Assembly (NCBI GenBank): GCA_043808095.1
Contig: JAZDFF010000011.1
Location: forward strand, 48,030-112,029
Reading direction: 5' to 3'
Origin: Candidatus Omnitrophota bacterium
GTDB lineage: Bacteria > Omnitrophota > Gorgyraeia > JAZDFF01
DNA: 64,000 nt
Shown: in pieces, positions 1,383 to 56,854 of the stretch
Layout: every line of letters begins with the position of its first letter
Numbering within the stretch: the first letter of the stretch is position 1
Notes under the pieces: generated by a model
What the model saw: the letters and a program-made list of their open reading frames with translations, nothing else
Databases searched by the model: none
Told to the model about the DNA's origin: nothing
Translations under genes and position numbers: made by a program

Positions 1383-1450
1383 TACCCCGACGCCCCGACG
1401 AAACGTCGGGGGTCGGGGTATCCCGACTGAAGCGAAGCGAAACGTCGGGA
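1383..1450. repeat. GC-rich nested hairpins of the CCCGACG-WWW-CGTCGGG family
   Basis: taccccgacgccccgacgaaacgtcgggggtcggggta is a roughly 17-bp-stem palindrome. A second hairpin, tcccgac...gtcggga, follows it. Confidence 0.7.
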
Positions 1451-5439: not shown

Positions 5440-5650
5440 TTATGCCTCCTTTAATGAGCGCTTGATTTATGGAGCACAAGGTGCGACATAAGTCAATCTT
5501 TTATGAATAGCATCTTTGATTGTGCGAATTGAATCCGCCAATGCTTTGTGGCGGATAGATTTCATTCGATTACAACGGATTTTTTTATTTTACATCAGTA
5601 CGAGTTTAAAGTAAAGCAAATTCCTCTGTTTGAATGGTTCAAATGGCAGG

Positions 5651-6406
5651 TTATCTCTTTTCTTGAGAGGTTAGTCTTTGTTGCAGAAATTCCCTGAACT
5701 CCTGGGGATACTCTATCTTTGCCTTCCCGGCTGAGCATTTATCGATACTTTCGATAATCTTGGGTATCCTCTCATAAGGAATGCTGATCAATAATTTATC
5801 TTTTTCTACATTACAGAGTTTTCTGGCAGTATAGTCATAGAAAGACAAATTAACCTCACCCGTTAGTAATGGATAGATGATACTCAACCGACAGGTCGGG
5901 CCTCCGATCTTAATCTTAGGCATATTGCCGTCTATAAAGGTTGAAAGCGTAAGCAGCCGGCAGGCGCTTTCGGGATTAGAGATAAAGATTACTAATTGCG
6001 GCTTAAATTCGCATTTTTCCATCGGGGAGAGGACAAAATAGGACTTAGAGTTATCGCCAACGTCTTCCATCTGGGAAATGAGCTTATCCAGGGCTTCGTA
6101 TGAACAGAATAACTTTTCTCCTTCAACCACAAACTGCTTTACCATCTGAATGATTTTGGGGTCTTTAAAATCGTAAAAACCCAAATGCCAGCCGGCCCCG
6201 AAACAGGCATTCGTGTCTTTGGCTATCTGAAGGGTCTCGCCTTTTGCGGCATCCAATATTGCCCGGCAGATGCGCAGCCTCTTATTACTATCTTTTAAAA
6301 ACGGTTCTTTCATACAGCTTAAGGCCACCGGGCTATATTCTAAATTAAGCAACTCTTTTAAAATTAATGAAAATTCCTGCCATTGTTTCTGCATAGTTAT
6401 CTCCAT
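5651..6406 (-). CDS. DUF169-like hypothetical protein
   Basis: 251 aa, soluble. Motifs NACFGAGWHLG and GGPTCRLS recall DUF169 (COG2043). The family assignment is from memory only. Confidence 0.4.
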   Translation of the reverse strand: MEITMQKQWQEFSLILKELLNLEYSPVALSCMKEPFLKDSNKRLRICRAILDAAKGETLQIAKDTNACFGAGWHLGFYDFKDPKIIQMVKQFVVEGEKLFCSYEALDKLISQMEDVGDNSKSYFVLSPMEKCEFKPQLVIFISNPESACRLLTLSTFIDGNMPKIKIGGPTCRLSIIYPLLTGEVNLSFYDYTARKLCNVEKDKLLISIPYERIPKIIESIDKCSAGKAKIEYPQEFREFLQQRLTSQEKR

Positions 6407-6500
6407 TAATGAGCAGACGACTTACGGAACGAAAGTGCGACGCCCTATTTCGCTAAAGCTTCCTACTACGCTAAAGCTTCGTAGGACAAGTCGTAGGGCT
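6407..6500 (-). promoter_or_regulatory. conserved structured 5' leader element, copy A (SD-proximal CTCATTAATGGAG plus an ACTTACG/CGTAAGT hairpin)
   Basis: Sense strand reads ...cgtaagtcgtctgctcattaatggagataactATG. It is homologous to 14548-14640 and 33515-33600. Confidence 0.55.
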
Positions 6501-6745
6501 GTTTCCGAGACCTTGGCGAAGGAAAACGTAAGTCGTAGCTCCGACGATACGTCGGAGCGCCTGCGCCTGCCTACTGGCAGGCGAGCATCCATACCGAAAA
6601 ACCGAGCTTCAAAACCTATGTACATAGTTTTGGCGGGTTTATCCCGTTACACCCAGAAAGCCCCGGTCTTAAGACTGGGATAAAATGGCAAATTAAAATT
6701 AACCATAGAAAATCCCCGTCCTTTATTGACAGGGTGTAATGGGGC

Positions 6746-7666
6746 TTACTTCTGTCGTGCTAGATATCTGAAGGCTGACAAGGCTGCCTTTGAGCCTTCT
6801 CCGGCTGCGATAATGATTTGTTTTTCCGGCATATCCGTAACATCGCCGGCTGCAAAAATTCCTGCGATATTAGTCTGGTTATAGCGGTCTATCTTGATTT
6901 CGCCGTATTGGTTTTTATCTATACCCTCGGCAAATTCCGAATTCGGAACAAGGCCGATTTCTACAAAAATCCCCTCAACCGGAATTGTCTCAACTTTACC
7001 TTCCCTTTTTATCTTGATGCCGCTTGCTAACTTCTGGCCGAGGACCGCTATCACCTGGCTATTATTAAGGACGGTTACTTTATTGCTTTCCTTAACCTTC
7101 TCCTGCATTATGGCGTCGCCGTTAAGGCCTGAGGCGCTATTTATAATATAAACGTGCCTGGCGATTCTTATTAATTGAAGCACGGCATCTAAGGCAGAGT
7201 TGCCGCCGCCGATAACCGCGACATCTTTTTGGCTAAACAACGGTCCGTCGCAGGTAGCGCAGTAGCTTAAGCCTTTATTCTTAAACTCACGTTCACCTGG
7301 TACATTAAGTTCTCTGGAGTGCTTACCCGAGGCAATAATCGCTGTCTTTGCTGTATAGGCGCCTTTATTGGTCTTAACGCTTACTATATTATTTACCTTT
7401 TTAATCTCAGCAACTATTTCGTTCTCTCTTAATTCAAGATTGTATTTACGCAGATGCTCTTCAAATTTAGCAGCTAACTCCGGACCGGTAATAAACTGAT
7501 AGCCGGTATAATTTTCTATATCACCGCTCCATGCAGCCTGACCGCCGATATCGCCGGTAATAACTAAGGTATTCAGCCTCTTACGTGCAGCGTAGACACT
7601 TGCGGTTATTCCCGCCGGACCTGCCCCGATAATAATCAAGTCATACATATCGTTTGTACTATTCAA
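6746..7666 (-). CDS. trxB: thioredoxin-disulfide reductase
   Basis: 306 aa with GAGPAG FAD motif, redox-active CATCDG and a second Rossmann motif. Confidence 0.9.
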   Translation of the reverse strand: MNSTNDMYDLIIIGAGPAGITASVYAARKRLNTLVITGDIGGQAAWSGDIENYTGYQFITGPELAAKFEEHLRKYNLELRENEIVAEIKKVNNIVSVKTNKGAYTAKTAIIASGKHSRELNVPGEREFKNKGLSYCATCDGPLFSQKDVAVIGGGNSALDAVLQLIRIARHVYIINSASGLNGDAIMQEKVKESNKVTVLNNSQVIAVLGQKLASGIKIKREGKVETIPVEGIFVEIGLVPNSEFAEGIDKNQYGEIKIDRYNQTNIAGIFAAGDVTDMPEKQIIIAAGEGSKAALSAFRYLARQK

Positions 7667-7679
7667 AAGTCATATTAAC

Positions 7680-7840
7680 AGCTTCCTTCGTTTTCGAAGC
7701 TCGTCTCTCGGTATGGATGCTCGTATCGATGCTCGTCTTTAGAGGCTCGTCCTTAAAATATTTTTCGAGCATCGAGCTTCCAGCTTCGATACTAGCATCT
7801 ACAACGTCAGACGAACATCTAGCATCTGGTATCTATAATC
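7680..7840. repeat. imperfect palindromic element of GATGCTCGT / CGAGCATC words, centred on TTAAAATATTTT
   Basis: gaagctcgtctctcggtatggatgctcgtatcgatgctcg ... cgagcatcgagcttccagcttcgatactagcatc. It lies between trxB and grx. Confidence 0.5.
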
Positions 7841-7847
7841 TATCTTC

Positions 7848-8087
7848 TTAACCTATCCCTAACGCCTGGCTTATCCTCTCTTTATCAAACCCGACTATAA
7901 TCTCTCCGTCTATATCTAAGACCGGAACACCCATCTGTCCGGAGATACGGATCATCTCCTCGGCTGCCTCGTGGTTGGCGGCTACATCAATATCTTGAAA
8001 TGAGATGTTGTTTTCCTTTAAGAATTGCTTGGCCCGGATACAGAAAGGGCACGTAGAGGTGCTATATACCTTGACTGTTTTATCCAT
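7848..8087 (-). CDS. glutaredoxin-like protein
   Basis: 79 aa with a CPFC active site in a thioredoxin fold. Confidence 0.75.
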   Translation of the reverse strand: MDKTVKVYSTSTCPFCIRAKQFLKENNISFQDIDVAANHEAAEEMIRISGQMGVPVLDIDGEIIVGFDKERISQALGIG

Positions 8088-8110
8088 GCATTGCCTCCTG
8101 GTATAATCGT

Positions 8111-8222
8111 TTAAGGGTCAGGAAGGGATAGTAGGAATCAGTAAGGGTTAGTAGGGGAGTTTAAAATTTTTAACCTTTCTAACCCTTTCTATCCCCTGCT
8201 ATAACCTACTAACCCCTAAACG
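8111..8222. repeat. ~110-nt G-arm/C-arm palindromic element, copy 1
   Basis: A left arm of GGGWTAG words and a right arm of CTAWCCC words flank a TTTAAAATTTTT centre. A near-identical architecture occurs at 24800-24912. Confidence 0.7.
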
Positions 8223-8255
8223 TACTGTAATTGTTTTATGAAGTTTATAGGATGC

Positions 8256-8732
8256 CTAAATAGATGCTCTTAAATCCAACAACTGCTTTAAGTGGCTTTG
8301 TTCTTGAGCAACCAAATTATCTATTGCCTTATGATCGCTTATTGGAACCACCTTCTTCATCCCCTCATAAAAAACAACTGAGTCCTTTTCAAACTTTATG
8401 CCGATGTCTACAGCTTCTTTATCGCCTTTAATTTTTTGCGCGATTTCGTTTCCTTTATTTTCCTGGGTAAACACATATTCTACGGCCAAAGCGCTCATAT
8501 AAGCCAGGTATTCTCCAGGATAAGATTCTGGCGGCTCATATCTGCCTACCGACTCCAGCATCTCTTGAAAGACAATAATGTGTTTTTCTTCCTCGCCTTT
8601 AAGAAATACAAAGACTTTCTTTATCCTGGGATCCCGGGTTTGACCTGCTATGGTGTTATAAAAATCCCTGCCATTTTTCTCAATCTGAATTCCCAACTCC
8701 ACTATCTCGCTACCTGAAAAAATATTGGCCAT
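8256..8732 (-). CDS. rubrerythrin-family (erythrin-like) ferritin-fold protein without a rubredoxin domain
   Basis: 158 aa with two E..E/ExxH di-iron motifs (EEKHI, EQSHL). Confidence 0.6.
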   Translation of the reverse strand: MANIFSGSEIVELGIQIEKNGRDFYNTIAGQTRDPRIKKVFVFLKGEEEKHIIVFQEMLESVGRYEPPESYPGEYLAYMSALAVEYVFTQENKGNEIAQKIKGDKEAVDIGIKFEKDSVVFYEGMKKVVPISDHKAIDNLVAQEQSHLKQLLDLRASI

Positions 8733-8734
8733 AA

Positions 8735-9205
8735 TTATCCTCCTGCCTTTATTCTATGCGGTGTAAGATCGACTAATTCTTTCACCTCCATGACAATCAT
8801 ATATTGCGGCTTTGGTAAAAGCGCCTCGGGATGCCTGGGATGGCCTTTCTCGCCGCGAAGATTCTTGATTATCCTCTGCGAAATTCTACCGGTTATCTTT
8901 TCATCCCAGGTTTTGATAATTTCAGGACTAAACTCATCCTCCTTGATAATCTTGCCCCTACCCTTCAGGCAATAGCCTTTAAATTTATGTTCATCTACCG
9001 CCGTAATACTCATTTGAGGATTGTATTTTAAATTATCAAACGTCTTGCCCTGATAAAGATCGAGTAAATAAACAAATCCTTCGGGTTCTATCTTTACCAA
9101 TCCCTTACAGGCCTCATGCGGCATTCTGTCTCTACCAATAGTAGAAACAATGACGAAATTCTGATTAGAAAAGAAATTTATTATCTCTTCTGTCAGTTTT
9201 TTCAT
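8735..9205 (-). CDS. pyridoxamine-5'-phosphate-oxidase-fold (FMN-binding split barrel) protein
   Basis: 156 aa with the PNPOx-like pattern ...FVIVSTIGRDRMPH... Confidence 0.5.
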   Translation of the reverse strand: MKKLTEEIINFFSNQNFVIVSTIGRDRMPHEACKGLVKIEPEGFVYLLDLYQGKTFDNLKYNPQMSITAVDEHKFKGYCLKGRGKIIKEDEFSPEIIKTWDEKITGRISQRIIKNLRGEKGHPRHPEALLPKPQYMIVMEVKELVDLTPHRIKAGG

Positions 9206-9281
9206 TAAGAGAATCTGACTCCCTGCAACTAAATATTTGCCTCGGCTATCCAGCGGCCGTGGACATTACAGTCCTCAATGA

Positions 9282-9725
9282 CTATAAGCCTGCCTCGCTA
9301 ATCCAGGCACCGTGCAGATTACAGAGCTCTATTACGCTAAGTTTGCCACTTGAAACCTTAAGGTGGAGCGCAGCTGCTGGATTGAGCTTATCAGGAGTTA
9401 AGATTACCCTAGAAATAAACTCATTGTCTATATAAAAGTCGATGTGAATAATATAGTGCTTGGCTTCCATAGGGTGTTGAATCTGGCCAATTTTTACATG
9501 CACATCTTGACAATCCTCGGGGATTAAACTACATTTTTTTACAACAGTAATAATCGGCAGGTGCTTTTTCTCTAACTCGGTTAGATTATTTACATCCTGG
9601 GCAGTCTTTATAGCATCCCCTCTTTCTTCAAAAGCCGTCTTAGGTGCACCACACACAGGACATCTCTCTGGTGCACTACCATTTATAGATATAAACCCGC
9701 AAACCTTACATACATATCCTTTCAT
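9282..9725 (-). CDS. superoxide reductase (desulfoferrodoxin/neelaredoxin family) with an N-terminal rubredoxin-like Cys4 knuckle
   Basis: CKVCGF...CPVCG is followed by the EKKHLP (E-K-HVP) motif, an H..H..H.C..H ligand set and LCNLHG. Confidence 0.7.
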   Translation of the reverse strand: MKGYVCKVCGFISINGSAPERCPVCGAPKTAFEERGDAIKTAQDVNNLTELEKKHLPIITVVKKCSLIPEDCQDVHVKIGQIQHPMEAKHYIIHIDFYIDNEFISRVILTPDKLNPAAALHLKVSSGKLSVIELCNLHGAWISEAGL

Positions 9726-9744
9726 AGCATTAGCCCCCTTTCAT

Positions 9745-10311
9745 TTAACCAGAAACGATTGCTTGCCCTGAATCATAAGCCTTTTTTAAAACCTCTGGTT
9801 GTTTTAGTATACTTTCCTTTCCATCAATGCCTGTACAGAAAAGCTCACCCTTATAGTCTGCATCAATTGTAGCAAAGAAATTTTTAACGATCGATTTGGC
9901 ATTTTCAAAGAAATCTTTCCTCTTAGAGCCTTCTACGGAAAAAAAATAACCTTTCTTGCTTTTTTTAAATATATCCTTCCCCAATATATACTTTGCCCTC
10001 CAGATACACTGAAAACGATCTATCATCATTTTTGTCTGGGCAGTTATGCTCCCAAAAAATATAGGGGATGCCAGGACAATAACATCTGCAGCTTCAATTT
10101 TTTTATAGAGAAGCTGCATATCATCTTCTACTATGCAGGTGCCATCATCCCGTAGTTCGTCGCACTCCAAGCAAGGAGAAAATTTAAGTCTGGCTAATTC
10201 TACCTTTTCTGTTTTGGCTCCTTTTTCTTTAGCTGCCTCTAGTACCTTGCTAAGCAAGATATCGGTATTACCGCCTATCCTGGGGCTACCCATTATGCCT
10301 AAAATATTCAT
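9745..10311 (-). CDS. NAD(P)H-dependent FMN reductase / iron-sulfur-flavoprotein-like (flavodoxin fold)
   Basis: 188 aa. MNILGIMGSPRIGGNT is a flavodoxin-like start, and a CLEC...C cysteine cluster is present. Confidence 0.55.
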   Translation of the reverse strand: MNILGIMGSPRIGGNTDILLSKVLEAAKEKGAKTEKVELARLKFSPCLECDELRDDGTCIVEDDMQLLYKKIEAADVIVLASPIFFGSITAQTKMMIDRFQCIWRAKYILGKDIFKKSKKGYFFSVEGSKRKDFFENAKSIVKNFFATIDADYKGELFCTGIDGKESILKQPEVLKKAYDSGQAIVSG

Positions 10312-10331
10312 GGCTAAGCGCCTAGTTTATC

Positions 10332-10907
10332 TTAATAATTTTCGCAAAGGAGTTCATAATATGCTTGGGGATGAGCACATGCAGGACATTCTTCGGGAGC
10401 TTCTTTACCCTCATGCACATATCCACAATTGCGGCATTTCCATTTGACAACAGTATCCCTTTTGAACACCTTGCCTTCTTTTAAATTTTTAAGCAGCTTT
10501 CGGTATCTCTTCTCATGCTGCTCTTCTACTTCTGCTATTTCCTTAAATTGAACTGCCACTTCTTCGAAACCTTCTTGACGCGCAACCGCTTCAGCTTCTT
10601 TGTAAAGCTTTGTCCATTCAAGATTTTCTCCGGACGCAGCAGCTCCTAGATTCTGGGCTGTATTTCCAATAACGCCGGCTGGATAACTCGCTACAATTTC
10701 CACCTCCCCACCCTCTAAGAATTTAAAGAATCTCTTAGCATGCTCTTTTTCATTATCAGCAGTCTCTAAGAATATTCCGGCTATCTGCTCGTAACCTGCC
10801 TTTTTTGCCACAGAAGCAAAATAGGTATAGCGATTCCTTGCCTGTGACTCTCCTGCAAAAGAAGCCAATAAATTCTTCTCCGTCTTTGTTCCCTTTATGG
10901 TCTTCAT
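10332..10907 (-). CDS. rbr: rubrerythrin (ferritin-like diiron domain plus C-terminal rubredoxin domain)
   Basis: The ORF track extends to 11015, but the real start is MKTIKG... at 10907, preceded by GAGGGAGGG. The C-terminal motif is CRNCGY...CPAC. Confidence 0.85.
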   Translation of the reverse strand: MKTIKGTKTEKNLLASFAGESQARNRYTYFASVAKKAGYEQIAGIFLETADNEKEHAKRFFKFLEGGEVEIVASYPAGVIGNTAQNLGAAASGENLEWTKLYKEAEAVARQEGFEEVAVQFKEIAEVEEQHEKRYRKLLKNLKEGKVFKRDTVVKWKCRNCGYVHEGKEAPEECPACAHPQAYYELLCENY

Positions 10908-11060
10908 ATCTAACCCTCCCTCAATGAGCCCGCCATTGATGCAGTGGCGGGCGATTTGATCCCGCCCTTTTGGATATATAAAGATTGGGGTTAACAAACC
11001 AAAAGGGCGGGACAAATTCGGACAGCAATTTACGTTCGCTTCGCTTCGTAAATTGCGTCT

Positions 11061-11222
11061 TCATATTATCTTCTCAAACATATCCTTGCTCACACCGCAT
11101 TCAGGACAGACCCAGGTATCCGGCAAATCACTAAAGGCTGTCCCCGCGTTTATGCCATTGTCCGGGTCACCAACCGCAGGGTCATAGATATAACCGCAAA
11201 CTGTGCAACGATATTTTTCCAT
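11061..11222 (-). CDS. rubredoxin (53 aa; below the ORF-track size cut-off)
   Basis: Hand translation gives [53 protein letters not shown], a classic CxxCG...CPxCG rubredoxin. Confidence 0.85.
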
Positions 11223-11389
11223 TGCCTTAACTCTCCTTATTTACGCCTATCTCTTTTTCTTCTTTGCCTTTTTCTTTGGTTTTTTTACTCCGCAGCCACA
11301 GCATCCCATCTCTACACCTCCTCAAATGACCCCCTGCTGTTTCGTTTTGTTTCGCTTGCTTCACAAAACGGAACAAAACGACAGGGGGG

Positions 11390-11640
11390 AATTTGATCCC
11401 GACGTATCGTCGGGGTAAGTGGTTCAACTTCGCTCTGGTTCGACTTTGCTCTGGTTCGACTTTGCTCACCATTCGCCCTGAGCAAGCTCGCCAGAGGCGA
11501 GCGCGTCGAAGGGCTCACCATCCTTCGAATGCATTCGACTACACTCAACATTCGTCCTGAGCTTGTCGAAGGACGAACCATCCTGAGCGCAGTCGAAGGA
11601 TTCGGCCTAATCCCGACGTATCGTCGGGATGGCCTCACTT
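11390..11640. repeat. composite MITE-like element bounded by identical 20-nt palindromes (ATCCCGACGTATCGTCGGG), carrying GTCGAAGG/CCTGAGC repeats
   Basis: The terminal hairpins lie at 11396-11415 and 11610-11630. The interior has duplicated ctctggttcgactttgct and an ~75-nt block whose reverse complement recurs at 31880-31955. The right terminal hairpin encodes the last 7 aa of FprA. Confidence 0.65.
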
Positions 11641-12812
11641 ATCTTCTGGGCAAAATCCTTTCCAAATTCATAACAGCGCTTTAGCTCAACATCATCCGGA
11701 ACATATTTAAAGCTTAATCCGGACTGAGCTAATTCTATTCCCGACTCTTTAAAAATATCCTCGATTTCCTTAACAGCACCACCTGACCAGCCGTAAGAAC
11801 CGAAGGCAGCTGCAATTCTTTTCTGCGGACGCAGGCCCTTTAAAAATTCCAGGAACCCGGCAATAGAGGTGAGCATATCATTATCATGTGTCGATGAGCC
11901 GATGACAAAGCCTTTGGCATCCAACATCTCTTTGATTACCTCAGTGCGATCAGACGTGGCGATGTCAAAAAGTTTTACATCCAATCCCGCAGCTATAATG
12001 CCCTCGGCTATGTATCTAGCCATCTTTTCGGTTGCGCCCCACATCGTCTCATAGACAATTACGGCTTTGGGCTTAGTCTCATTCTTTGCCCACGATACAT
12101 ATGCATTTACAATCTTGGCCGGGTCTTTGCGCCAGATAATCCCGTGGCTGGGTGCGATCATCTTAATAGGGATATTCATCTTCTGCACTTCTTCGATCTT
12201 TTTTAAGACCAGGCTGCTTAACGGCCAAAGGATATTACCATAATATTTTGCCGCCTCATCCATCAGCGCAGCAGAATCTACCTCATCGTCAAATCTCTGG
12301 GAGGTAGCAAAATGCTGGCCAAAGGCGTCATTGGGCAAAAGAATCGCGTCTTCAACCAGATAACTAAACATACTATCCGGCCAATGCAACATAGGTGCCT
12401 CAAGAAAGGTTAAAGTCTTCTTACCTAATTTTAATTTGTCTTTGGTCTTTACAACTTGAAAATCCATATCTAAATAATAATGTTTAAATAAACCCTCTTT
12501 GCACTTTGCTGTGCCAAAGACCTTGGCCTTGGGACACAGTTTCAATATTGCCGGAAGCGCGCCTGAATGGTCTATCTCTACGTGGTTGGCAATGATATAG
12601 TCGATTTTTTCAGGTGCAATAATCTGTCTGATTCTTTCAATCATCTCTTCGGCAAAAGGTCCATAGACAGTATCCACCAAGGCAATCTTGTCATCTACTA
12701 TAAGATAGGCATTATAGGTGGTTCCTCTTTTTGTGGTATAGGTATGCCCATGGAAGTTCCTGACGTTCCAATCAATAGCGCCTACTCAATGAACCTGTTT
12801 ATAAATTTCCAT
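11607..12812 (-). CDS. flavodiiron protein (rubredoxin:oxygen/NO oxidoreductase, FprA) with an in-frame TGA at codon 9
   Basis: A metallo-beta-lactamase-like diiron domain (HVEIDH...) is followed by a flavodoxin domain. The ATG at 12810-12812 is preceded by GAAGGGG. TGA at 12786-12788 replaces the conserved Trp of the YWVGA motif. The ORF track therefore begins at a GTG at 12680. Confidence 0.7.
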
Positions 12813-12826
12813 AATTACCCCTTCTT

Positions 12827-13534
12827 TTAATAACCCGCAAAGTTTTCCGTAACAATCTTATCTTGAGATAAAACCAAATCATCAGTAAGAATTTTCTTCA
12901 TGGCCTCGACCATTAAAGGAGGGCCACAGATATAAAATCTTCTTTGATTATAATCCGGGATTTCTTCTTTGATAACCTGACTGTTAATCCGGCCGGTTCT
13001 GCCATGCCATTCGGACCCAGCTTCGGAGAGGATGTGTACAACCTTTAAATTCGGATAATCCTTCTGCATTATAGCAAAATCTTCCTTAAAGGCTATATCT
13101 TTAGTGGTGCGGTTGGCATAGATTAAAACTATATCTGTGCCAATTTTTTTATCCACTACGAACTTTATGATGCTCCTTATAGGGGTTATCCCAATGCCGC
13201 CAGAAAGAAAGGCTATCTTAGGATATTCGCCTACAAAGGTAAATGCGCCAAAGGGGTATTTTATCTTCAAGCTATCAGCGGGCTTTAATTTATCCAATAT
13301 CTTTGAATATTCACTTTCCGTCAGTTTTTTGGTAAACTCAATAAAGCCTTTTTCCGTGGGGGAATTTGATATGGAAAAATAATGGTTTAGTTCTTTTCCG
13401 TTTTCTTTGACGAATGCCTGGAGAAATTGACCGGGCTTAAAATCTATCTCTTCTGAAACTGCGAAGCGAAAGCTCTTTACGTTGTATGTGCGCTCAATCA
13501 CTTCTTTTATTTGTAGTTCTAATTCCTTTGGCAT
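12827..13534 (-). CDS. FAD/NAD(P)-binding oxidoreductase (ferredoxin-NADP+ reductase-like)
   Basis: 235 aa. An FNR-type beta-barrel (RFAVSEE...GQFL...HYFSISN) is followed by the NAD-binding GGIGITP motif. Confidence 0.65.
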   Translation of the reverse strand: MPKELELQIKEVIERTYNVKSFRFAVSEEIDFKPGQFLQAFVKENGKELNHYFSISNSPTEKGFIEFTKKLTESEYSKILDKLKPADSLKIKYPFGAFTFVGEYPKIAFLSGGIGITPIRSIIKFVVDKKIGTDIVLIYANRTTKDIAFKEDFAIMQKDYPNLKVVHILSEAGSEWHGRTGRINSQVIKEEIPDYNQRRFYICGPPLMVEAMKKILTDDLVLSQDKIVTENFAGY

Positions 13535-13553
13535 AATAGTCCTTTTATCTATT

Positions 13554-14297
13554 TTAATGGAAATATCCTGCTACAAGTTTGCCTAAGAAAAATCCAGTTG
13601 CGCAGGATAAAACACCAATCAACAAAGTTTCTAAACCGCTTAAAAGCCAGTGAATCTTAGTAATTCTAGACTTGATTGTTCCTAAAATAAAAAGGAAGGT
13701 CAAAACCGATATCGCAGAAACAACCAAAGACTCTCTTAAGCCATCAAAGAGAAAAAATGGCAGAATTGCCGGCAACGCTCCAACTAGAAATGAACCCGCA
13801 GAGATAAATCCGATCTCCAAAGGGTTATCAATTAATCCCGGGCTGATACCGATTTCCTCCTGGACCATGAATTTAAGCCAACACTCTTTGTTAGCGGTAA
13901 TACGCCTTACCGCGATTTCCTGTTCGTCTTTTGTAAAACCCATCTCGCCAAAGATTTCTCTTATCTCTTGGGTTTCTTTTTGCGGATCCTCTTCTATTTC
14001 TCTTATTTCCCGCTCAATCTGATTCTCGAAAAAATGCTTCTGGGCTTTTGTAGATATATAAGAACCGAAGAATATTGCCACCGCCCCGGCTACTATCTGG
14101 ATTAAACTAGCTAAAATTATCTTATTCTTTGCAATCAAAGAAACCGAAACACCCGCAATAAAAGAGACCGTTGTAACCAGGCCTGTATCAATGGCATAGA
14201 CCACGTCTCTGATAATCCTTCCCTTGGCGGTATGCCAGTTTTCGCCGTGCCAGTTTTTTAGTCTTTGTTCTAAGGGGCTTCTAATTAGTTGCGCCAT
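13554..14297 (-). CDS. VIT1/CCC1-family iron/manganese transporter
   Basis: The VIT-family topology is present: cytoplasmic helical segments between TM helices, with conserved E/D-rich loops. The start at 14297 has a GAGGGGG SD, whereas the ORF-track M at 14336 lacks one. Confidence 0.6.
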   Translation of the reverse strand: MAQLIRSPLEQRLKNWHGENWHTAKGRIIRDVVYAIDTGLVTTVSFIAGVSVSLIAKNKIILASLIQIVAGAVAIFFGSYISTKAQKHFFENQIEREIREIEEDPQKETQEIREIFGEMGFTKDEQEIAVRRITANKECWLKFMVQEEIGISPGLIDNPLEIGFISAGSFLVGALPAILPFFLFDGLRESLVVSAISVLTFLFILGTIKSRITKIHWLLSGLETLLIGVLSCATGFFLGKLVAGYFH

Positions 14298-14310
14298 AGC
14301 TAACCCCCTC

Positions 14311-14547
14311 CTATATGGCAATAACCTCTTTAACACTTGGCACTTCTTGTTTAATCAATTTCTCAATGCCCATCTTCAGAGTCATTGAACTCATCGGACA
14401 ACAGCCGCAGGCACCGGTAAGTTTTACCTTTACCGTCCCGTCATCTGTTACCTCAACAAGCTGGACATCCCCGCCATCAGCCGCAAGCATGGGCCTGATC
14501 TTATTTAAGGCTGCCTCTACTTTTTCTTTCATGTTTTCCTCCTTCAA
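14311..14547 (-). CDS. NifU-like (Nfu C-terminal domain) Fe-S cluster protein
   Basis: 78 aa: ...GGDVQLVEVTDDGTVKVKLTGACGCCPMSSMTLK... Confidence 0.8.
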   Translation of the reverse strand: MKEENMKEKVEAALNKIRPMLAADGGDVQLVEVTDDGTVKVKLTGACGCCPMSSMTLKMGIEKLIKQEVPSVKEVIAI

Positions 14548-14640
14548 TGAGTAGACAACTTACGGAGTTCGAAGAACGACGTAAGTTGTAGGACGAAGTC
14601 CGTCTGCGAATTCCTGCCTGCCGGCAGGCAGGGAACCCAG
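14548..14640 (-). promoter_or_regulatory. conserved structured 5' leader element, copy B
   Basis: + strand reads ctccttcaatgagtagacaacttacggagttcgaagaacgacgtaagttgtagg...ccgtctgcgaatt...gcctgccggcaggc. Confidence 0.55.
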
Positions 14641-14794
14641 CACTTATTTTTGTAACTGGGCTTGGGTTCTAAATTTAACTTTAAATTCGAATTAAACTTC
14701 TTTAATTTTAACCTAGCAAATTTTCAAAAATAAGTGCTGGGTAAATTCGGTCATAAAACTTACGTTTACTTCGTTCCGTAAGTTTTGACCTCAT

Positions 14795-15346
14795 TTAAAT
14801 ATGATGCGCTACAAACTCCGCCAAAATGACGATATCTTCGGTGCAAAAAATATCCTTGATGCTTTTATCAAAAAGGATGTTGGCTTCAGGCCCGAATTCC
14901 GCATCGGCCCTATATAAGGTAATCAAAACCGCAACTCCCTCAAAGACATCTAAAACCACGCTAACATCGGCCAGTTGGACTCTCTTAGCAGAAAAACGCT
15001 CGGTTAATTCTAAGAGTCCGTCAATATTTGATCCGTATTTCTTTAATATCGGCTCGATTACCCTTTGTCGAAAAGCGGGATAATAGCCCTGCCCACCTTC
15101 TAATTGTTTAAAAGAAATCCACTCGCCCTGGACCTGGGGTAATCCTTTGAGCTTACGAGCCAGATAATGCAGTATAAGAATACTTAAATAGGTCTTTGCC
15201 GGGATATTGCAGGATAAAGAGAGGGCCTCTCTTTTTTCTAAATCGACGGTGTATTCGTCAGTCAAAAATTTAACCGCATAAATTTTTTCTTCTGCAATCC
15301 CTGCTAAATCTTCCCAGGCACCGGAAAGCGCAACTTCATAAGCCAT
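14795..15346 (-). CDS. hypothetical protein (possibly DUF3786-like)
   Basis: 183 aa, soluble. No motif could be assigned securely. Confidence 0.3.
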   Translation of the reverse strand: MAYEVALSGAWEDLAGIAEEKIYAVKFLTDEYTVDLEKREALSLSCNIPAKTYLSILILHYLARKLKGLPQVQGEWISFKQLEGGQGYYPAFRQRVIEPILKKYGSNIDGLLELTERFSAKRVQLADVSVVLDVFEGVAVLITLYRADAEFGPEANILFDKSIKDIFCTEDIVILAEFVAHHI

Positions 15347-15360
15347 GTTTAGACAATTCT

Positions 15361-15597
15361 TTATTTAGATTTTTCCAGCAGGGTTTTCAGATCTTCCGCG
15401 GGGGAAGTGATTAGTTTTAGATCAAACTTCTCTTTAAGGATATTAAATACATTCGTAGATATAAAGGCCGGAGGCGTAGGACCTACATACATGCCTTTTA
15501 TATTAAGATACAACAAAGTAAGCAATATTGCAACTGCTTTTTGCACCAACCAGAATAGTACCAAACTTAAAAAGCAGGCTATTTTAATTGCTTCCAT
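15361..15597 (-). CDS. small membrane protein
   Basis: 78 aa with two hydrophobic helices. It overlaps the upstream gene by 19 nt. Confidence 0.4.
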   Translation of the reverse strand: MEAIKIACFLSLVLFWLVQKAVAILLTLLYLNIKGMYVGPTPPAFISTNVFNILKEKFDLKLITSPAEDLKTLLEKSK

Positions 15598-15800
15598 CTA
15601 TCCTCACCAACGCACTCTCGGGCGTATCTGCACCAATCAACACAAGAAGGCAGTCTTTCTCTACAGACCAAATTCTTACATTTCGGGCATTTGATTTTCA
15701 CCTCATCAGAGAAAATCTCTACCCTATATCCGCAATCCGGACATTTGATTATCTCGACTCTAACATTTCTGCTATCCTGACCAGGACATTTGTTAATCAT
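15579..15800 (-). CDS. Cys-rich zinc-ribbon protein
   Basis: 73 aa with repeated CxxC pairs (CPDCG, CPKCK, C..C). Confidence 0.45.
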   Translation of the reverse strand: MINKCPGQDSRNVRVEIIKCPDCGYRVEIFSDEVKIKCPKCKNLVCRERLPSCVDWCRYARECVGEDRWKQLK

Positions 15801-15888
15801 CTTAATTTTTCTCCAATCTTAATAAACAGCCCTTCGCCAAATTCCGCCTCGGGCTGTTGATCAAGGGCGAAACGTTTTTTGTAAAGCC

Positions 15889-27569: not shown

Positions 27570-27656
27570 CTTAACCTCCGATTTGCTGTATTTTTTCTTC
27601 TGTCTGCAAATCGTCCCGAGTCCCGACGTAACGTCGGGACGAGGGACAATTATACC

Positions 27657-49005: not shown

Positions 49006-51186
49006 TTACTTTTCTGATTCAATTATTTGTGGCAACTCAGCAATAAGAGTATTTAAACGCTCTGTTTCTTGACGCATCTTCTCTATTAAGGCAGAACGCT
49101 TTGATTCATTATTTAGATTTTCCGGATTTAACAATTCCGAAGCTGTTTGAGAAATAGATGTTAACGGCTCAGTGAGTCCTGAGGAAAACGTAGTTAAAAG
49201 CAGATTACGTAGACGCTCATTCTCAATCCTAGATTCCGCATCAAGAGCTGCTGCAGCAAGCTGTGCACCTTCGACAGCCAAAGCAGTTTGATTGACGAAC
49301 ATCTCCAATATATGTAACTGTTCCGGGTCAACAAATTGTGTCTCCTGAGTCGGAAAAACTCCCAAAACTCCCACTGTTTTTTCTGCGCCAGTAAAAGGCA
49401 AGTACATACCGTTTGATCCGGGCAGAGTATCTGTACCCTTACCTGCGGATTTCTTATGCTCAAATACCCATTGTGCAACAGCCACCTCATTTGAATCTAG
49501 CGCTAATTGTACAACTTCACCAAACCGGGCTTCCAGCCTCTTGTTTTTATCCGGCACAAAAATAACTGCTCTGCACTTAAAAAAATCTTCGATATGCGAA
49601 AGTGCAATCTTAAACAATTCATCGGGATAAGAACTTTTTGAAAGCTCGTGGCTTAAGGCATAAAGCGTTTTAGTTCGGTCTTCACGAATCCCCATGTTAA
49701 TAGTTTGGCGCCTAAGTTGCCCAGTTAAATGCGCTATCATAAGACCAACGCCCAGCATCACTATAAATGTAAAAACATACTCAACATCTGCTACCGCAAA
49801 AGTAAAATATGGCCGCACAAAAAAGAAATCAAAAAATAAGACACTAAAAAACGATGCTATCATTGATATCCGGCGTCCATACCGGAAAGCAATCCAAGTT
49901 ACGCCAAGAAGGTAAACCATAATCAAATTAACTAGCGATAAGTGCAACAAAAGCAGAATCCAGTCAACTAAAGTACAAATAATAACAACGCCAATAGCCA
50001 GCCCCAGATTTTTCCAAGAAAAAGGAATCAAGGCAGGCGGCTTAAATTTAACCGGCTGCTCCTGGGTATCCCCGCTCAACAAATACAGATCAATGTCCTG
50101 GCATTTACGGGCTAATTTGTCAAATATTGAACCGAAAATCAATTCACGCAGCTTTGGTTTTCCAGGCTTTCCAATGATTATCTTTGTTACATTTTTTGAG
50201 CGGGCGTATGAAATTAATGTCTCTACGATATCCTGACCACTAAGCGTTACAATTTGAGCGCCCAATTTTTCCGCAAAATTAAGCATCTCGGACACCCTGT
50301 TTTTATCTTCCGGACGCAATTCGGCAAGAGGTTCAACATATGCCACGATCCACTCTACTCCCAAATCTAAAGCGATACGCTTACCCGCTCTGATTAATCC
50401 CATCGCAGAGGGGCTCGGACTTATACAGACCAAAAATCTATCCCTCACATTCCAAACTTTTGAAACAGCGTGTTCTTTTTTATATGACATCAATTTACTG
50501 TCAACATTGCGCTCTGTATAGCGCAGGGCCAATTGACGCAAAGCAATCAAATTACCCGGCTGGAAGAAATGTTCTGTTGCCGCTTGAGCTTGTTCACCAA
50601 GATATACCTTTCCTTCTTTTAACCGTTTGAGAAGCTCTTCGGTAGGAAGATCCACTAGCTCTATTTCGTCAGCCTGTTCGATAAATGTATCAGGAATAGT
50701 TTCGCGTACGATAACGCCGGTTACCTGAGCCACAATATCGTTGGCGCTTTCGCAATGCTGGACATTTAAGGTAGTATATACATCAATGCCTTGGTCGAGA
50801 AGTTCTTGGACGTCTTGCCAGCGTTTTGGATGACGAGAACCGGGAGCATTGGTATGTGCTAATTCGTCCACTAAAATAAGCTTTGGTTTTCTCTTTAAAC
50901 CAGCATCAATATCAAATTCACGCAACTGAACATTTTTATAAGAGATGATTTTAGGCGGGAGTATTTCGAGGCTTTCCAAAAGCGCTTCAGTCTCAGCGCG
51001 TTTATGAGTTTCTACATATCCGACCACAACATCAATACCTTCTTTTTTGCAGGCCCTGGCGGCTTCAAGCATCGAATAAGTTTTTCCGACACCCGCGACT
51101 GCTCCAAAGAAAATCTTAAGTTTACCGCGCTGGCTCTCTTCGGCTTTAACCTTAGCTAAGATTACATCAGGATCTGGTCTTTCCAT
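49006..51186 (-). CDS. kdpD: KdpD-like sensor protein without a kinase domain
   Basis: It has a KdpD N-terminal domain (GAVAGVGKTYSM), then USP, four TM helices and GAF. The DHp remnant reads SSGLTEPLTSI where SHELRTPLT is expected. There is no HATPase domain. Confidence 0.8.
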   Translation of the reverse strand: MERPDPDVILAKVKAEESQRGKLKIFFGAVAGVGKTYSMLEAARACKKEGIDVVVGYVETHKRAETEALLESLEILPPKIISYKNVQLREFDIDAGLKRKPKLILVDELAHTNAPGSRHPKRWQDVQELLDQGIDVYTTLNVQHCESANDIVAQVTGVIVRETIPDTFIEQADEIELVDLPTEELLKRLKEGKVYLGEQAQAATEHFFQPGNLIALRQLALRYTERNVDSKLMSYKKEHAVSKVWNVRDRFLVCISPSPSAMGLIRAGKRIALDLGVEWIVAYVEPLAELRPEDKNRVSEMLNFAEKLGAQIVTLSGQDIVETLISYARSKNVTKIIIGKPGKPKLRELIFGSIFDKLARKCQDIDLYLLSGDTQEQPVKFKPPALIPFSWKNLGLAIGVVIICTLVDWILLLLHLSLVNLIMVYLLGVTWIAFRYGRRISMIASFFSVLFFDFFFVRPYFTFAVADVEYVFTFIVMLGVGLMIAHLTGQLRRQTINMGIREDRTKTLYALSHELSKSSYPDELFKIALSHIEDFFKCRAVIFVPDKNKRLEARFGEVVQLALDSNEVAVAQWVFEHKKSAGKGTDTLPGSNGMYLPFTGAEKTVGVLGVFPTQETQFVDPEQLHILEMFVNQTALAVEGAQLAAAALDAESRIENERLRNLLLTTFSSGLTEPLTSISQTASELLNPENLNNESKRSALIEKMRQETERLNTLIAELPQIIESEK

Positions 51187-51223
51187 AAGTCTAATTATAC
51201 CTCATAAAATATGTCTATGTTAT

Positions 51224-51802
51224 TCATTTCTTATAAGCATCTAACGCTAAATTTAGTTCCAGCACATTTACAACCGGCTCCCCTATAATTCCAAATAAAC
51301 GCCCAGAAGTATGCTTGGCGATGAGAATCCTAATTGTATCTTGTGATAATCCCCTAAGCCGTGCAATACGCGGAGCCTGATAATACGCCGCCGCTAAACT
51401 AATATGCGGATCCAGCCCGCTTGCTGATGAAGTAACTAAGTCAACCGGTATAGGAGTTGTATTGTCAGAATCGGCTAGCCTTAAAGCTTTAATGCGCGCT
51501 TTCACTGCCTCAAGTAATACCGGATTAGACGGCCCTAGATTTGAGCCTGACGAAGAAGCTGCGTTAAAAGAAACAGGCGATGTCGCTGAAACACGACCCC
51601 AAAAATACTTGGGATCATTAAATGCCTGGCCGATAAGAGATGAACCAACCGGCTTACCGTTTCGGTAGATTAAACTGCCATTGGCTTGATTCCGAAAAAA
51701 TACTTGAGCAATCCCGGTAATAAAAAGCGGATAAATAATGCCTGTCATTATTGATAAAACTATAAAAATTAGAATCGCTTGTTTTATTTGTCCCTTAAAC
51801 AT
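51224..51802 (-). CDS. kdpC: K+-transporting ATPase subunit C
   Basis: 192 aa, full-length KdpC. Confidence 0.9.
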   Translation of the reverse strand: MFKGQIKQAILIFIVLSIMTGIIYPLFITGIAQVFFRNQANGSLIYRNGKPVGSSLIGQAFNDPKYFWGRVSATSPVSFNAASSSGSNLGPSNPVLLEAVKARIKALRLADSDNTTPIPVDLVTSSASGLDPHISLAAAYYQAPRIARLRGLSQDTIRILIAKHTSGRLFGIIGEPVVNVLELNLALDAYKK

Positions 51803-51810
51803 ATTTGTCC

Positions 51811-53889
51811 TTATCGAACTAAATGTAGTGCCACTAAAACCATATCAATCAATTTTATCCCTATAAATGGCGCAATAATTCCGCCAACTCCATAGATAAA
51901 TAAATTATCACGTAAAAGCCGGCTTGCCGGCATCGGCTTATAATGAATGCCTTTTAATGCTAGAGGAATAAGAAATATAATAATAAGCGCGTTAAATATG
52001 ACCGCAGACAGAACCGCACTCCCAGGCGTAGACAAATGCATAATATTAAGTGCGCCAAGTGCCGGATATGTTCCTACAAAGGCAGCCGGTATAATAGCAA
52101 AGTACTTAGAGACATCGTTAGCGATACTAAATGTCGTAAGTGAGCCGCGGGTCATAAGAAGCTGCTTGCCAATTTCAACGATCTCAATAAGCTTTGTGGG
52201 ATTAGAATCAAGATCAACCATATTCCCAGCTTCCTTTGCAGCCTGCGTTCCGGTATTCATAGCAACAGCTACATCAGCCTGCGCAAGAGCGGGCGCGTCA
52301 TTTGTCCCGTCACCGGTCATTGCAACAAGCCTGCCCCTTTCCTGCATTTTACGTATATATTTAAGCTTGGTTTCAGGTGTGGCTTGCGCCAGAAAATCAT
52401 CCATACCGGCTTCAGCGGCAATTGCTGCGGCAGTCAAAGGATTATCTCCTGTAATCATTACGGTTTTAATACCCATACGCCTGAGTTCGGCAAAACGCTC
52501 TTTAATGCCGCCCTTAATAATGTCTTTTAGCTGAATTACCCCAAGCACATTATTATGTTCTGCGACAACCAAAGGTGTCCCCCCGCTTTTAGATATGGAA
52601 TCAATAGATGCCTTTAAATCTTCGGGAAATAAACCGTTGAGTTTCTTTACATAATCTTCGATAGCATCAACTGCTCCTTTTCTGATTTGCCTGCCATCGC
52701 CTAAATTAACTCCGCTCATCCGCGTTTGTGCCGAAAAGGGAATAAAATGTGCGCTAAGTTCATGAATTTGGCGCTCCCTGATGCCGTATTTCTCTTTAGC
52801 CAATACTACAATGCTCCTTCCTTCGGGAGTTTCGTCTGACAAGGAAGCAAGCTGAGCTGCATCGGCCAACGCTTCAGCACTAATTCCCTGAGACGGAAAA
52901 AAAGCTACCGCTTGTCTATTACCAAGTGTGATTGTTCCAGTTTTATCCAAAAGTAATACGTCCACATCTCCGGCTGCTTCTACTGCCCGACCCGATGTAG
53001 CGATGATATTTGCTTGAATCATCCTATCCATGCCAGCGATACCTATAGCAGACAACAATCCTCCAATAGTAGTAGGAATAAGACATACAAGCAATGCAAC
53101 TAATACCGTTACTGTAATAGGCTGGCCTTGACCGGCTGCGTTTACGCTATAAAGAGAAAATGGCAATAGCGTTGCTGTGGCTAAAAGAAAAATAAGCGTA
53201 AAAACTGCCAAAAGGATGCTAAGCGCGATTTCATTGGGAGTCTTCTGCCTTTTTGCTCCTTCAACCATCGCAATCATATGATCAAGGAATGTCTCTCCCG
53301 GATTAGAAGTGATACGGACCACAAGCCAGTCCGAAAGCACTTTTGTTCCGCCGGTAACAGCGCTGCGGTCTCCTCCGCTTTCGCGTATAACCGGAGCGCT
53401 CTCTCCAGTAATTGCGCTTTCGTCAACAGAAGCCACTCCCTCGATTACATCTCCATCCATTGGGATAATGTCGCCTGCCTCAACGAGAATAACATCTCCT
53501 TTGCGAAGTGTAGTAGCAGATACTTTCTCCTGAGCGGAGCCATAATTTGGCTTTAAAAGTTTTCTAGCAATAGTATCCTTGCGGGCTTTTCTTAAACTCT
53601 CAGCCTGAGCTTTTCCGCGGCCTTCAGCCATAGCTTCGGCAAAATTGGCAAAAATAAGGGTAAACCACAACCAAAGTGTTATAGCTAATATAAAACCTGC
53701 GGGAGCTTCCCCACGCCCCATTAAGGCTTGGAAATATAAACCCGTAGTCAAAAGACTCCCCACTAAAACTACAAACATTACGGGATTTTTAATCTGATGT
53801 CGGGGATCTAATTTTTTTATTGAATTGACGGCTGCCGGCCCACAAATAGCCGGATCAAATAAAGATTTAGCTTTATGTGATTTACTCAT
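51811..53889 (-). CDS. kdpB: K+-transporting P-type ATPase subunit B
   Basis: DKTGTIT, TGDN and [10 protein letters not shown] motifs are present. Confidence 0.95.
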
Positions 53890-53897
53890 AAAAACTC

Positions 53898-55643
53898 CTA
53901 AATACTGCGCAACATAAGATGCTCAACAATCGGTCCCAAAGCCAAAGCCGGAAAAAATGTAAGCGCTCCAACGATTAAAATAACCATAACTAAAAATATA
54001 ATAAAAAGCGGCGTATGCGTAGGTAGTGTCCCTGGACTTGCCGGAACAATCTTTTTCTTGGAAAGCGAACCTGCTATGGCTAGCATCGGTATGGCCAGCC
54101 AGTATCTAGCAAAAAACATTGCTAATCCTTGGGCTATATTATAAAAAAGATTATTAGTAGATAATCCAGCAAACGCACTCCCATTGTTATTACTTGCCGA
54201 TGAAAAAGCATATAATATTTCACTAAATCCGTGAGGCCCGGGATTTAAAATCGAGTTTTTCCCTGCGGGCACAATAACTGAAATTGCTGTGCCTATAAGA
54301 ACAAGTATAGGCGGTATTAAAATCATAAGTGAAGCCATTTTCATTTCGTAGCTTTCGATTTTCTTACCTAAATATTCGGGAGTCCTGCCAATCATAAGTC
54401 CGGAAATAAAAACAGCAATAATTACAAAAGCGATCATGCCATAAAGACCGGAACCAACTCCGCCAAAGATTACTTCTCCTAATTGCATAAGCCACATCGG
54501 AATCATTCCACCCAGAGGCATATAAGAATCGTGCATTGAATTTACCGAACCATTGGATGCCGCGGTTGTAGCCGTTGCCCAAATAGCAGAATTTACTATT
54601 CCAAAACGCGCTTCCTTCCCTTCCATGTTACCACCAGCCTGAGATGTTGAATAATTTTGATCAATACCGAGATTGTTAAACAATGGGTTTCCTTTTTGCT
54701 CGAAATGAATACATGTCCATAGGCAAGGAATAAAAATAATCAACATCGCAATTAACAACGCCCAACCTTGTCGACGGTCTCTAACCATATACCCGAACGT
54801 ATAACATAATGCAGCAGCTATTAAAAGTATGGCCAAAACTTCCAGAAAGTTTGACAAAGGCGTGGGGTTCTCAAAAGGATGAGCAGAATTGACATTAAAG
54901 AACCCGCCCCCATTAGTGCCTAGTTGTTTAATGGCAACCTGCGATGCAGCAGGGCCTAAAGCAATTACTTGTTCTGTAACAGCCTTTCCATCCGTATCTT
55001 TCGAAACCTCAAGCAAGGCTACTTTTGCGCCAGGTTTAAAAGTCTGGACAACCCCTTGAGATACTAAAATAAAAGACAGAAGTAATGCGAGAGGAATTAA
55101 AATATAAAGTACGGATCTAACCAAATCTACCCAAAAGTTACCGATTGTTTCTGCCTGTTTCTGGATAAATCCCCTGATTGAAGCTACAAGAATTGCCATA
55201 CCCGTTGCCGCAGAAACAAAGTTTTGCACAGTTAACCCAAGCATCTGCGTAAAATAACTCAAAGTTGTTTCGCCACCGTAACTTTGCCAATTTGTATTAG
55301 TTGCAAAACTTACCGCCGTATTAAAGGCCAAGTCTGGCTTAACCGCAGGCATAGACATGGGGTTCAAAATAAAGTGCGCTTGAAAACGCTGAAGGGCGTA
55401 TACAACAATTATACCTATAATATTAAACAGCATCATGCTAACGGCATAAGTTTTCCAGGACATTTCTTGTTCGGGTTTAACTCCACAGGTTCGGTAAATT
55501 AACTTTTCTAACCATACAAACCAAACATTTAAACCTGCCGGCTTGCCTTCGTAAATTCGCGCCATATAAATCCCGAGCGGCTTAACCATAAAAAGCAATA
55601 CAGCAATATAGACGGTGCTTTGAATGAGATTATTCCAATTCAT
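53898..55643 (-). CDS. kdpA: K+-transporting ATPase subunit A
   Basis: 581 aa with a 10-TM KdpA channel-like fold. Confidence 0.9.
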
Positions 55644-55656
55644 GAGAAAATCTCCA

Positions 55657-56628
55657 TTACAAAATATCCTTTTCTTCTATTATCTTCATCTCAACAATTT
55701 CGTCCATTCCTTTTACCAACGCTGTCGCTTTTTCTTTTCCTAAGACAAAAATGGCGGTACTCATCGCATCCGCTGCAGTTGTGGTATCAGCTACGATAGT
55801 TACAGAAACAATCCCATTATCAACCGGATAGCCTGTTTTAGGATTTATGATATGGCTGTAACGTTTCCCGTTAAGCATAAAAAATTGCTCGTAGTCACCT
55901 GATGTGGCTACTGCCTGGTTTTCAAGATCCAAAGGATAGAGTATCTGGCCAGGATTGCGTGGATGACGTATGGCCACTCGCCATTTACGGTTTCCTCTCC
56001 TGCCCAAACAGTAGATATCACCGCTTAAGTTTACCATTGCCGAGGTTATTCCCAAAGACTTAAGACGGCCGACGGCTTTATCGACTGCGTATCCCTGAGC
56101 AATTCCTCCCAAGTCAATTGCCATACCTGGCTGCATAAACGTAATCAAAGATGTTGTTTCATCAATTGAAATTTTTTCCGAGCCAATGAGCGGCAACTTT
56201 GCGTAGATATCATGAGAAGGAGGCAACGATACTTGCGTTTTTTCCTCCTGCGCCTCTTTGATTTTTTGTTTCCATATATCAGCCACGGGACTAACGGTAA
56301 TATCAAATGCATCGTTACTGAGCTTGTGGTATTTAAGCGAATTTTTCACCAGGGCCATCATATCGCCTGATGCCTTGAGGGTTCCCATTCTGTTCAGTTG
56401 CGATATTTCTGATGAGGGGTCAAAATTACTGGCTATTGCCTCGATCTTGCTTATCTCCTCAAACGCAGCATTAATTGCGTCTTTATCCTGGCAGGTAATT
56501 TCTGCAAACGTCCCCATTACAATACGAGTCTCTGTATAGTAAGGTCTGGAACAACCGAATAATCCAAACCACAGGACCAAGAGAATCGAAATCCTAAAAA
56601 AGAAACATCGGAAACTATTAATCCTCAT
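55657..56628 (-). CDS. apbE: FAD:protein FMN transferase (ApbE-family lipoprotein)
   Basis: A lipobox-like LFGC is followed by ...RIVMGTFAEI (the MGT motif) and an ApbE fold. Confidence 0.75.
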   Translation of the reverse strand: MRINSFRCFFFRISILLVLWFGLFGCSRPYYTETRIVMGTFAEITCQDKDAINAAFEEISKIEAIASNFDPSSEISQLNRMGTLKASGDMMALVKNSLKYHKLSNDAFDITVSPVADIWKQKIKEAQEEKTQVSLPPSHDIYAKLPLIGSEKISIDETTSLITFMQPGMAIDLGGIAQGYAVDKAVGRLKSLGITSAMVNLSGDIYCLGRRGNRKWRVAIRHPRNPGQILYPLDLENQAVATSGDYEQFFMLNGKRYSHIINPKTGYPVDNGIVSVTIVADTTTAADAMSTAIFVLGKEKATALVKGMDEIVEMKIIEEKDIL

Positions 56629-56717
56629 GAGAAAATCTCCGGTTTCAGAAGGGCAATCAAAAGATAAATCAGTAAAAGTACTGAAACAATACTACCAATC
56701 CAATAAATAGCTGGCAT
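56625..56717 (-). CDS. kdpF: K+-transporting ATPase subunit F (30 aa; absent from the ORF track)
   Basis: Hand translation gives MPAIYWIGSIVSVLLLIYLLIALLKPEIFS*. An AGGAGG SD lies 9 nt upstream, and the stop overlaps the apbE start (ATGA). Confidence 0.7.
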   Translation of the reverse strand: MPAIYWIGSIVSVLLLIYLLIALLKPEIFS

Positions 56718-56729
56718 GCGATAGGCCTC

Positions 56730-56810: not shown

Positions 56811-56822
56811 CGCCCGCTCCTC

Positions 56823-56849: not shown

Positions 56850-56854
56850 TGTGT

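Follow-up and report, generated by a model that had tools for sequence, protein, structure and literature searches.

Codon 9 of an fprA-type flavodiiron gene in an Omnitrophota population carries a probable recent nonsense mutation

The flavodiiron gene fprA in the 64-kb stretch of Omnitrophota DNA analyzed here (the window) is complete except for one in-frame TGA at codon 9. We consider it likely that a genuine, recent G-to-A transition in the sequenced population converted the tryptophan codon TGG at this position into the opal codon TGA. As far as loss of function can be judged from the DNA, the resulting allele would be null or at most a leaky hypomorph. The TGA is neither a recoding device nor a sign of a variant genetic code. 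A preliminary description of the same DNA had listed four origins for the stop, i.e., a sequencing error, a recent pseudogenizing mutation, programmed readthrough, or re-initiation giving a truncated protein, without committing to any of them. The recent nonsense mutation emerges as the best supported, with TGG in the closest relative, TGA in none of 82 related loci, an intact downstream reading frame and the same base in a separately built assembly.

The encoded protein, a member of a family that detoxifies oxygen and nitric oxide, is readily identified. Pfam searches returned PF19583 (ODP, E=7e-20), PF00753 (Lactamase_B) and PF00258 (Flavodoxin_1, E=1e-17), in the domain order of FprA-type proteins with a metallo-beta-lactamase-like N-terminal and a flavodoxin-like C-terminal part. 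The best match of solved structure was Moorella thermoacetica FprA (PDB 1YCF, E=2e-153, residues 5-392). All diiron ligands (H77, E79, D81, H82, H143, D162 and H223) are present, occupy invariant columns in our alignment (A1) and align with those of 1YCF. The two-domain architecture is shared with Moorella FprA, the Methanothermobacter F420H2 oxidase (2OHH) and Desulfovibrio gigas ROO (1E5D). As in other class-A flavodiiron proteins, the diiron domain is metallo-beta-lactamase-like and the FMN domain flavodoxin-like, and the HxExDH...H...D...H ligand set is that of Moorella FprA-type proteins. Where the window gene has TGA, 1YCF carries a tryptophan (..DGIYWVGAVDW..). The gene thus shows every defining feature of the class-A family save an open frame: all 82 related loci are open at codon 9, and here the frame from the normal N-terminus is broken at that codon. 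The window gene differs from known class-A systems by this TGA and by a C-terminal tail that has been rewritten by a repeat insertion, described below. Assignment as flavorubredoxin NorV was rejected, with scores below both NCBIfam equivalog cut-offs (NF003954 and NF008887; 431.7 vs 711 and 511.8 vs 635). Furthermore, Pfam found no fused C-terminal rubredoxin domain in the fprA ORF, rubredoxin being encoded by a separate gene.

The ancestral frame runs on the minus strand over positions 11607..12812. It is opened by an ATG at 12812..12810 and closed by a TAG at 11609..11607, with 401 codons in total and the TGA at 12788..12786 as sole interruption. Codons 2-8 read GAA ATT TAT AAA CAG GTT CAT, so that residues 1-8 are MEIYKQVH. 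After the TGA the sequence continues GTA GGC GCT ATT GAT TGG..., read as VGAIDWNVRNFHGHTYTTKRGTTYNAY..., and 392 codons stay open, with no diiron ligand lost and a whole flavodoxin domain. The frame is not a chance alignment of codons, since the MEIYKQVH encoded before the TGA is identical in the closest relative, where W (TGG) and VGAIDW come next. The ATG also lies at the position of the relative's ATG, and a Shine-Dalgarno-like GAAGGGG (12818..12824, minus strand), which probably serves as ribosome-binding site, is found 5 nt upstream of it. The preliminary description had placed the TGA, the ATG and this motif correctly; its spacing of 15 nt from the upstream stop needs a small correction. 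The upstream gene, an FAD/NAD(P)-binding oxidoreductase (12827..13534, minus strand; Pfam FAD_binding_6 and NAD_binding_1), ends with TAA at 12829..12827, and the spacer to the fprA ATG, AAGAAGGGGTAATT, measures 14 nt. The order of these two genes is kept in the closest relative. A promoter and terminator scan of positions 10900-14700 gave background-level signals only.

Downstream of fprA lies a rubredoxin gene (11061..11222, minus strand; Pfam Rubredoxin), the product of which is likely the electron donor for the flavodiiron protein. The whole cluster comprises genes for a NifU-like protein, VIT1, the oxidoreductase, FprA, rubredoxin, rubrerythrin, an FMN reductase and desulfoferrodoxin. Rubredoxin, rubrerythrin, desulfoferrodoxin and NAD(P)H oxidoreductase are the usual neighbors of class-A flavodiiron genes, and the neighborhood is a typical anaerobe oxidative-stress cluster. 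A tblastn search found no second FprA copy in the 64-kb window, so the gene is single-copy there. In one related MAG (JBBIPY01, Omnitrophota), two loci on contigs 1 and 65 (L008 and L009) encode the same flavodiiron N-terminal sequence. Relatives thus have the gene, or the contig with it, in duplicate, which bears on whether losing one copy matters.

Evidence for a change from TGG comes from the related genes. P0002, the closest relative, shares 95% of its amino acids with the window protein and has the same N-terminus with tryptophan at codon 9, MEIYKQVHWVGAIDW. Its DNA reads ...CAG GTG CAT TGG GTA GGG GCT ATT GAC TGG..., as compared to ...CAG GTT CAT TGA GTA GGC GCT ATT GAT TGG... in the window. 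Two contigs carry this relative, k141_364582 from ENA (L001) and Ga0315289_10007967 from JGI (L002), which are 99.97% identical. Blastn aligned 1,184 nt of the window gene with L001 at 91.3% identity and zero gaps. Together with 80 loci from GTDB species-representative genomes (L003-L082, almost all Omnitrophota MAGs), these two make up the 82 related loci in which we compared the codon aligned to the TGA, a comparison that the preliminary description had recommended. The codon is TGG in 58, a serine TCN codon in 24 and TGA in none; the stop is thus unique to the window sequence. The claim of a conserved tryptophan at this position consequently holds for the majority (58/82) and not as a strict rule (serine in 24/82).

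The residue before the VG(A/V)(I/V)DW motif switches between Trp (TGG) and Ser (all four TCN codons) among Omnitrophota flavodiiron proteins. This is an unusual pair, and TGG is one base away from TCG. An exact pattern taken around codon 9 had no match in the species-representative genomes, and the same scan of JGI metagenomes returned one contig, that of the TGG-bearing relative. Exact-protein look-ups with the GenBank product, the 357-aa product starting at TTG and the rubredoxin gave no matches, and no second sample carrying either codon-9 allele at strain level was found by these look-ups.

The rest of the gene bears no mark of decay. Comparing the window fprA with L001 by the Nei-Gojobori method (NG86) gave a dN/dS of 0.065 (dN 0.025, dS 0.38), and there are no indels between the two. 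Of 18 amino acid differences in the aligned core, polarized against 64 outgroup sequences, some 6 are derived in the window lineage and some 7 in the L001 lineage. The signs of relaxed selection expected of a pseudogene, i.e., a raised dN/dS and further lesions past the stop, are absent. These figures show that fprA was under strong purifying selection for nearly all the time since the split from the L001 lineage. From the low dN/dS and the balanced derived changes it follows that the stop is very recent, or is not real, or that the gene is still used. The allele resembles ordinary nonsense pseudogenes and strain-level null alleles in being a single TGG-to-TGA transition where each relative has a sense codon, with a stop that is not conserved. 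Unlike ordinary nonsense pseudogenes, the window gene lacks any downstream decay, and if it is a pseudogene it is very young.

Two properties of the window DNA bear on what a TGA can mean in it, namely which codons terminate genes and which start codons remain behind the stop. Among 71 long, non-overlapping ORFs, which cover 87% of the window, 39 end in TAA, 17 in TAG and 15 (21%) in TGA. At least five of these TGA stops lie within ATGA stop/start overlaps. The rubredoxin gene ends in TGA, and so does kdpF (56625..56717, PF09604), inside such an overlap. In 27 gene ORFs that we checked, 84 TGG codons and no internal TGA were counted. When every stop codon was scanned for long open frames on both sides, frames split by TGA were not in excess. 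The statement of the preliminary description that TGA is a stop elsewhere and TGG encodes tryptophan was borne out, and the many internal TGA codons at Trp or Gly positions by which it would have recognized an alternative code are absent from the 27 genes. TGA is a working stop, and a variant code is excluded as far as the 64 kb goes.

The kdp region to which kdpF belongs (49006-57021, minus strand) has features of its own. A c-di-AMP riboswitch (RF00379, 71.8 bits, 56851-57021) precedes kdpF, and an ApbE-family gene (55657-56628) lies between kdpF and kdpA, followed by kdpB, kdpC and a KdpD-like gene. The 726-aa KdpD-like protein has KdpD, Usp, DUF4118 and GAF domains and gave no match to a histidine-kinase domain.

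Behind the TGA, start codons for the remaining frame are poor. GenBank lists the product of this gene as MFH1201605.1 (P0001, "MAG: flavodoxin domain-containing protein"). The entry matches the window protein at 100% identity, lacks the first 12 residues of the full frame, has 389 aa and begins with MDWNVRNF. Its start is the ATT of codon 13 (12774..12776, minus strand), a non-canonical initiator past the TGA; the pipeline called no pseudogene, and so the interrupted gene is shown as an intact 389-aa protein. This ATT lies 9 nt past the TGA with a weak AGG as its only upstream signal. The first canonical in-frame start past the TGA is the TTG of codon 45 (12678..12680, minus strand), which the gene caller of the Logan contig described below selected. 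The preliminary description had put a GTG at 12680; the codon at 12680..12678 is TTG, and GTG follows directly at 12677..12675. No ribosome-binding site is visible upstream of this TTG/GTG pair (codons 45/46), and the next in-frame option, an ATG at codon 57, lies still further downstream. To evaluate the structural effect of these starts, we used the AlphaFold model of the TGG relative for its N-terminal strand layout only, its pLDDT of 76 being moderate. It predicts strands at residues 2-4, 7-9, 12-14, 31-33, 36-39 and 43-46. A start at codon 13 would remove two of the predicted N-terminal beta-strands. A start at codon 45 would delete most of the first six, so that the metallo-beta-lactamase-like domain is unlikely to fold, in agreement with the earlier expectation that a product truncated in this way is probably non-functional. 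Judged from the model, re-initiation is unlikely to rescue FprA function.

These data allow the alternatives to a recent nonsense mutation to be weighed. The position of the TGA, where relatives have tryptophan in a conserved frame, recalls codes with reassigned UGA, i.e., code 4 (Trp) of Mollicutes and some insect endosymbionts, and code 25 (Gly) of Gracilibacteria/Absconditabacteria. This position is the sole support for the TGA being decoded as an amino acid, either by such a code or as selenocysteine, and we regard that as scarcely credible. Unlike in reassigned codes, TGA demonstrably terminates other genes in the window, with its share of long ORFs and the ATGA overlaps given above, and the in-frame instance is single; codes 4 and 25 were rejected on these grounds. 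A literature search on stop-codon reassignment gave no mention of Omnitrophota, and the window contains no tRNA genes of any kind. In bacterial selenoprotein genes a SECIS element directly follows the UGA and homologues carry Cys or Sec at the aligned position, and the window fprA shows neither. No SECIS-like fold was detected 3' of the UGA (-10.8 kcal/mol and z=-0.04 for the 59 nt that begin with it), Rfam gave no match in the fprA TGA region, and the residue in homologues is Trp or Ser and in no case Cys; selenocysteine was rejected as well. The nucleotides past codon 9 are furthermore near-identical to those of the TGG relative, which also argues against a decoding signal. It would be less far-fetched, if still improbable, that the stop is tolerated because useful FprA is made by UGA-to-Trp readthrough or by restart at the ATT of codon 13 or the TTG/GTG of codons 45/46, the allele then being functional and tuned down. 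Of the stop codons UGA leaks most, and tRNA-Trp, which reads it as a near-cognate, would put back the original residue. Only 8 codons separate the stop from a strong start, the in-frame ATT follows close behind it, and because serine is accepted at codon 9 in 24 relatives, products of readthrough or misincorporation could be active. On the other hand, the absence of TGA from all 82 related loci gives no hint of a selected programmed signal. No stable structure follows the stop, and the 106-nt context around the UGA folds at z=-0.70, similar to the TGG relative. Structure-stimulated readthrough is thus without support, and conserved programmed readthrough, one of the options raised earlier, was rejected on the basis of the 82 loci and the near-identical flanks of TGG in the nearest relative; an unprogrammed near-cognate leak could still occur. 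The base after the stop is a G, and UGA with G as fourth base is not known as one of the leakiest contexts in E. coli. ATT is a very poor initiator, and restart at codon 13 or 45 would entail the strand losses predicted above.

An error in the sequence deserves more attention, although we still hold it to be unlikely. In this view the organism really has TGG and a normal fprA, and the TGA arose in sequencing or consensus calling, or belongs to a minority allele that was raised to the consensus. The stop is a single-base difference in an otherwise perfect gene with low dN/dS and intact ligands. MAG consensus sequences can blend strains, and in the protein collection searched the allele occurs once, the MFH1201605.1-type product forming a cluster of size 1, with no other truncated or identical product. 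Against this, the upstream oxidoreductase, searched as an exact protein, led to a Logan contig from run SRR27925880 (L083, 2,462 bp) that matches window positions 14605..12144 at 100% identity and includes ...CAT TGA GTA.... Logan is a differently built assembly, and since its contig carries the same TGA, neither the assembler nor the polishing of the MAG can have created the stop. Both assemblies may share reads, and with them a read-level artefact, so that the contig weakens the error option of the preliminary description without settling it. Substitution errors are rare in short-read consensus sequences, and repeated identical ones are unlikely. In addition, the window, 87% coding, contains no other interrupted gene, which points to a low error rate. 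The pattern found, a stop within the frame where orthologues have a sense codon, reproducible in DNA, is one that marks a nonsense allele.

With a real nonsense mutation as the preferred reading, its consequence would be simple. Ribosomes would initiate at the AUG at 12812 and stop after 8 residues, and the following 392 codons, with the diiron site and the FMN domain, would be left essentially untranslated. Near-cognate reading of UGA by tRNA-Trp occurs at low frequency in bacteria; such occasional events would be the sole path to normal protein, with the wild-type residue restored. A compensating paralogue or a suppressor tRNA may be encoded outside the 64 kb.

The flanks of fprA differ between the window and L001. 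The gap between fprA and the rubredoxin gene is about 17 nt in L001, and in the window blastn break points delimit a repeat-rich insertion of 402 nt (11248..11649) between the 3' end of fprA and rubredoxin. It is bounded by two identical ATCCCGACGTATCGTCGGG palindromes (11396-11414 and 11610-11628) and holds three 16-nt tandem units (11420-11467) as well as units of the CCTTCGAC...GCTCAGGA type. The insertion supplies the last codons of fprA (..SEAIPTIRRD) and its stop, giving a tail ..FAQKISEAIPTIRRD where the relative has ..FASKMV. It looks like a MITE/REP-like element. The palindrome CCCGACG-WWW-CGTCGGG occurs at five sites in the window (1394-1410, 6540-6556, 11398-11414, 11612-11628 and 27622-27638), compared to 0.01 expected with up to two mismatches. 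At least those at 6540 and 27622 sit in gaps between long ORFs. The exact pattern CCCGACGWWWCGTCGGG was found in none of 83 fetched loci, and the motif looks like a REP- or terminator-like hairpin that is specific to this genome. On the other side of the gene, the spacer between oxidoreductase and fprA in L001 is about 210 nt long (2741-2950) and contains a repeat (..CCTTCGCTTCGCTCAGGATTCCTCGAAGGACCCCGAGCGAAGTCGAGGGGC..), compared to the 14 nt of the window (12813-12826), and the ribosome-binding sites of the two are unlike. With repeats in the L001 spacer and on the 3' side of the window fprA, related repeat motifs have landed on opposite flanks of the gene. Identity between window positions 5637-15814 and L001 is mosaic, with 96% for the rubrerythrin, FMN reductase and desulfoferrodoxin genes (9204-10929), 91% for the oxidoreductase and fprA, and 64-86% for the other shared genes. 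Judging from the alignment, parts of the oxidative-stress cluster may have been recombined or exchanged.

The finding is nothing new in kind, as it concerns a known protein family and a textbook TGG-to-TGA transition. Its general significance is small: one recent nonsense change, in one gene, in one uncultured population. Within the 64 kb, at least, neither a variant code nor a selenoprotein holds for this Omnitrophota lineage. It is very improbable that the TGA allele is both real and maintained, either because low readthrough or re-initiation gives a small dose of FprA or because loss of FprA is adaptive in a permanently anoxic niche. If true, a leaky opal codon in an Omnitrophota oxidative-stress operon would here serve, in nature, to tune expression or to bring about an adaptive loss of the gene. 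The finding also calls for caution with the annotation, since metabolic reconstructions may err in scoring this MAG as FprA-positive.
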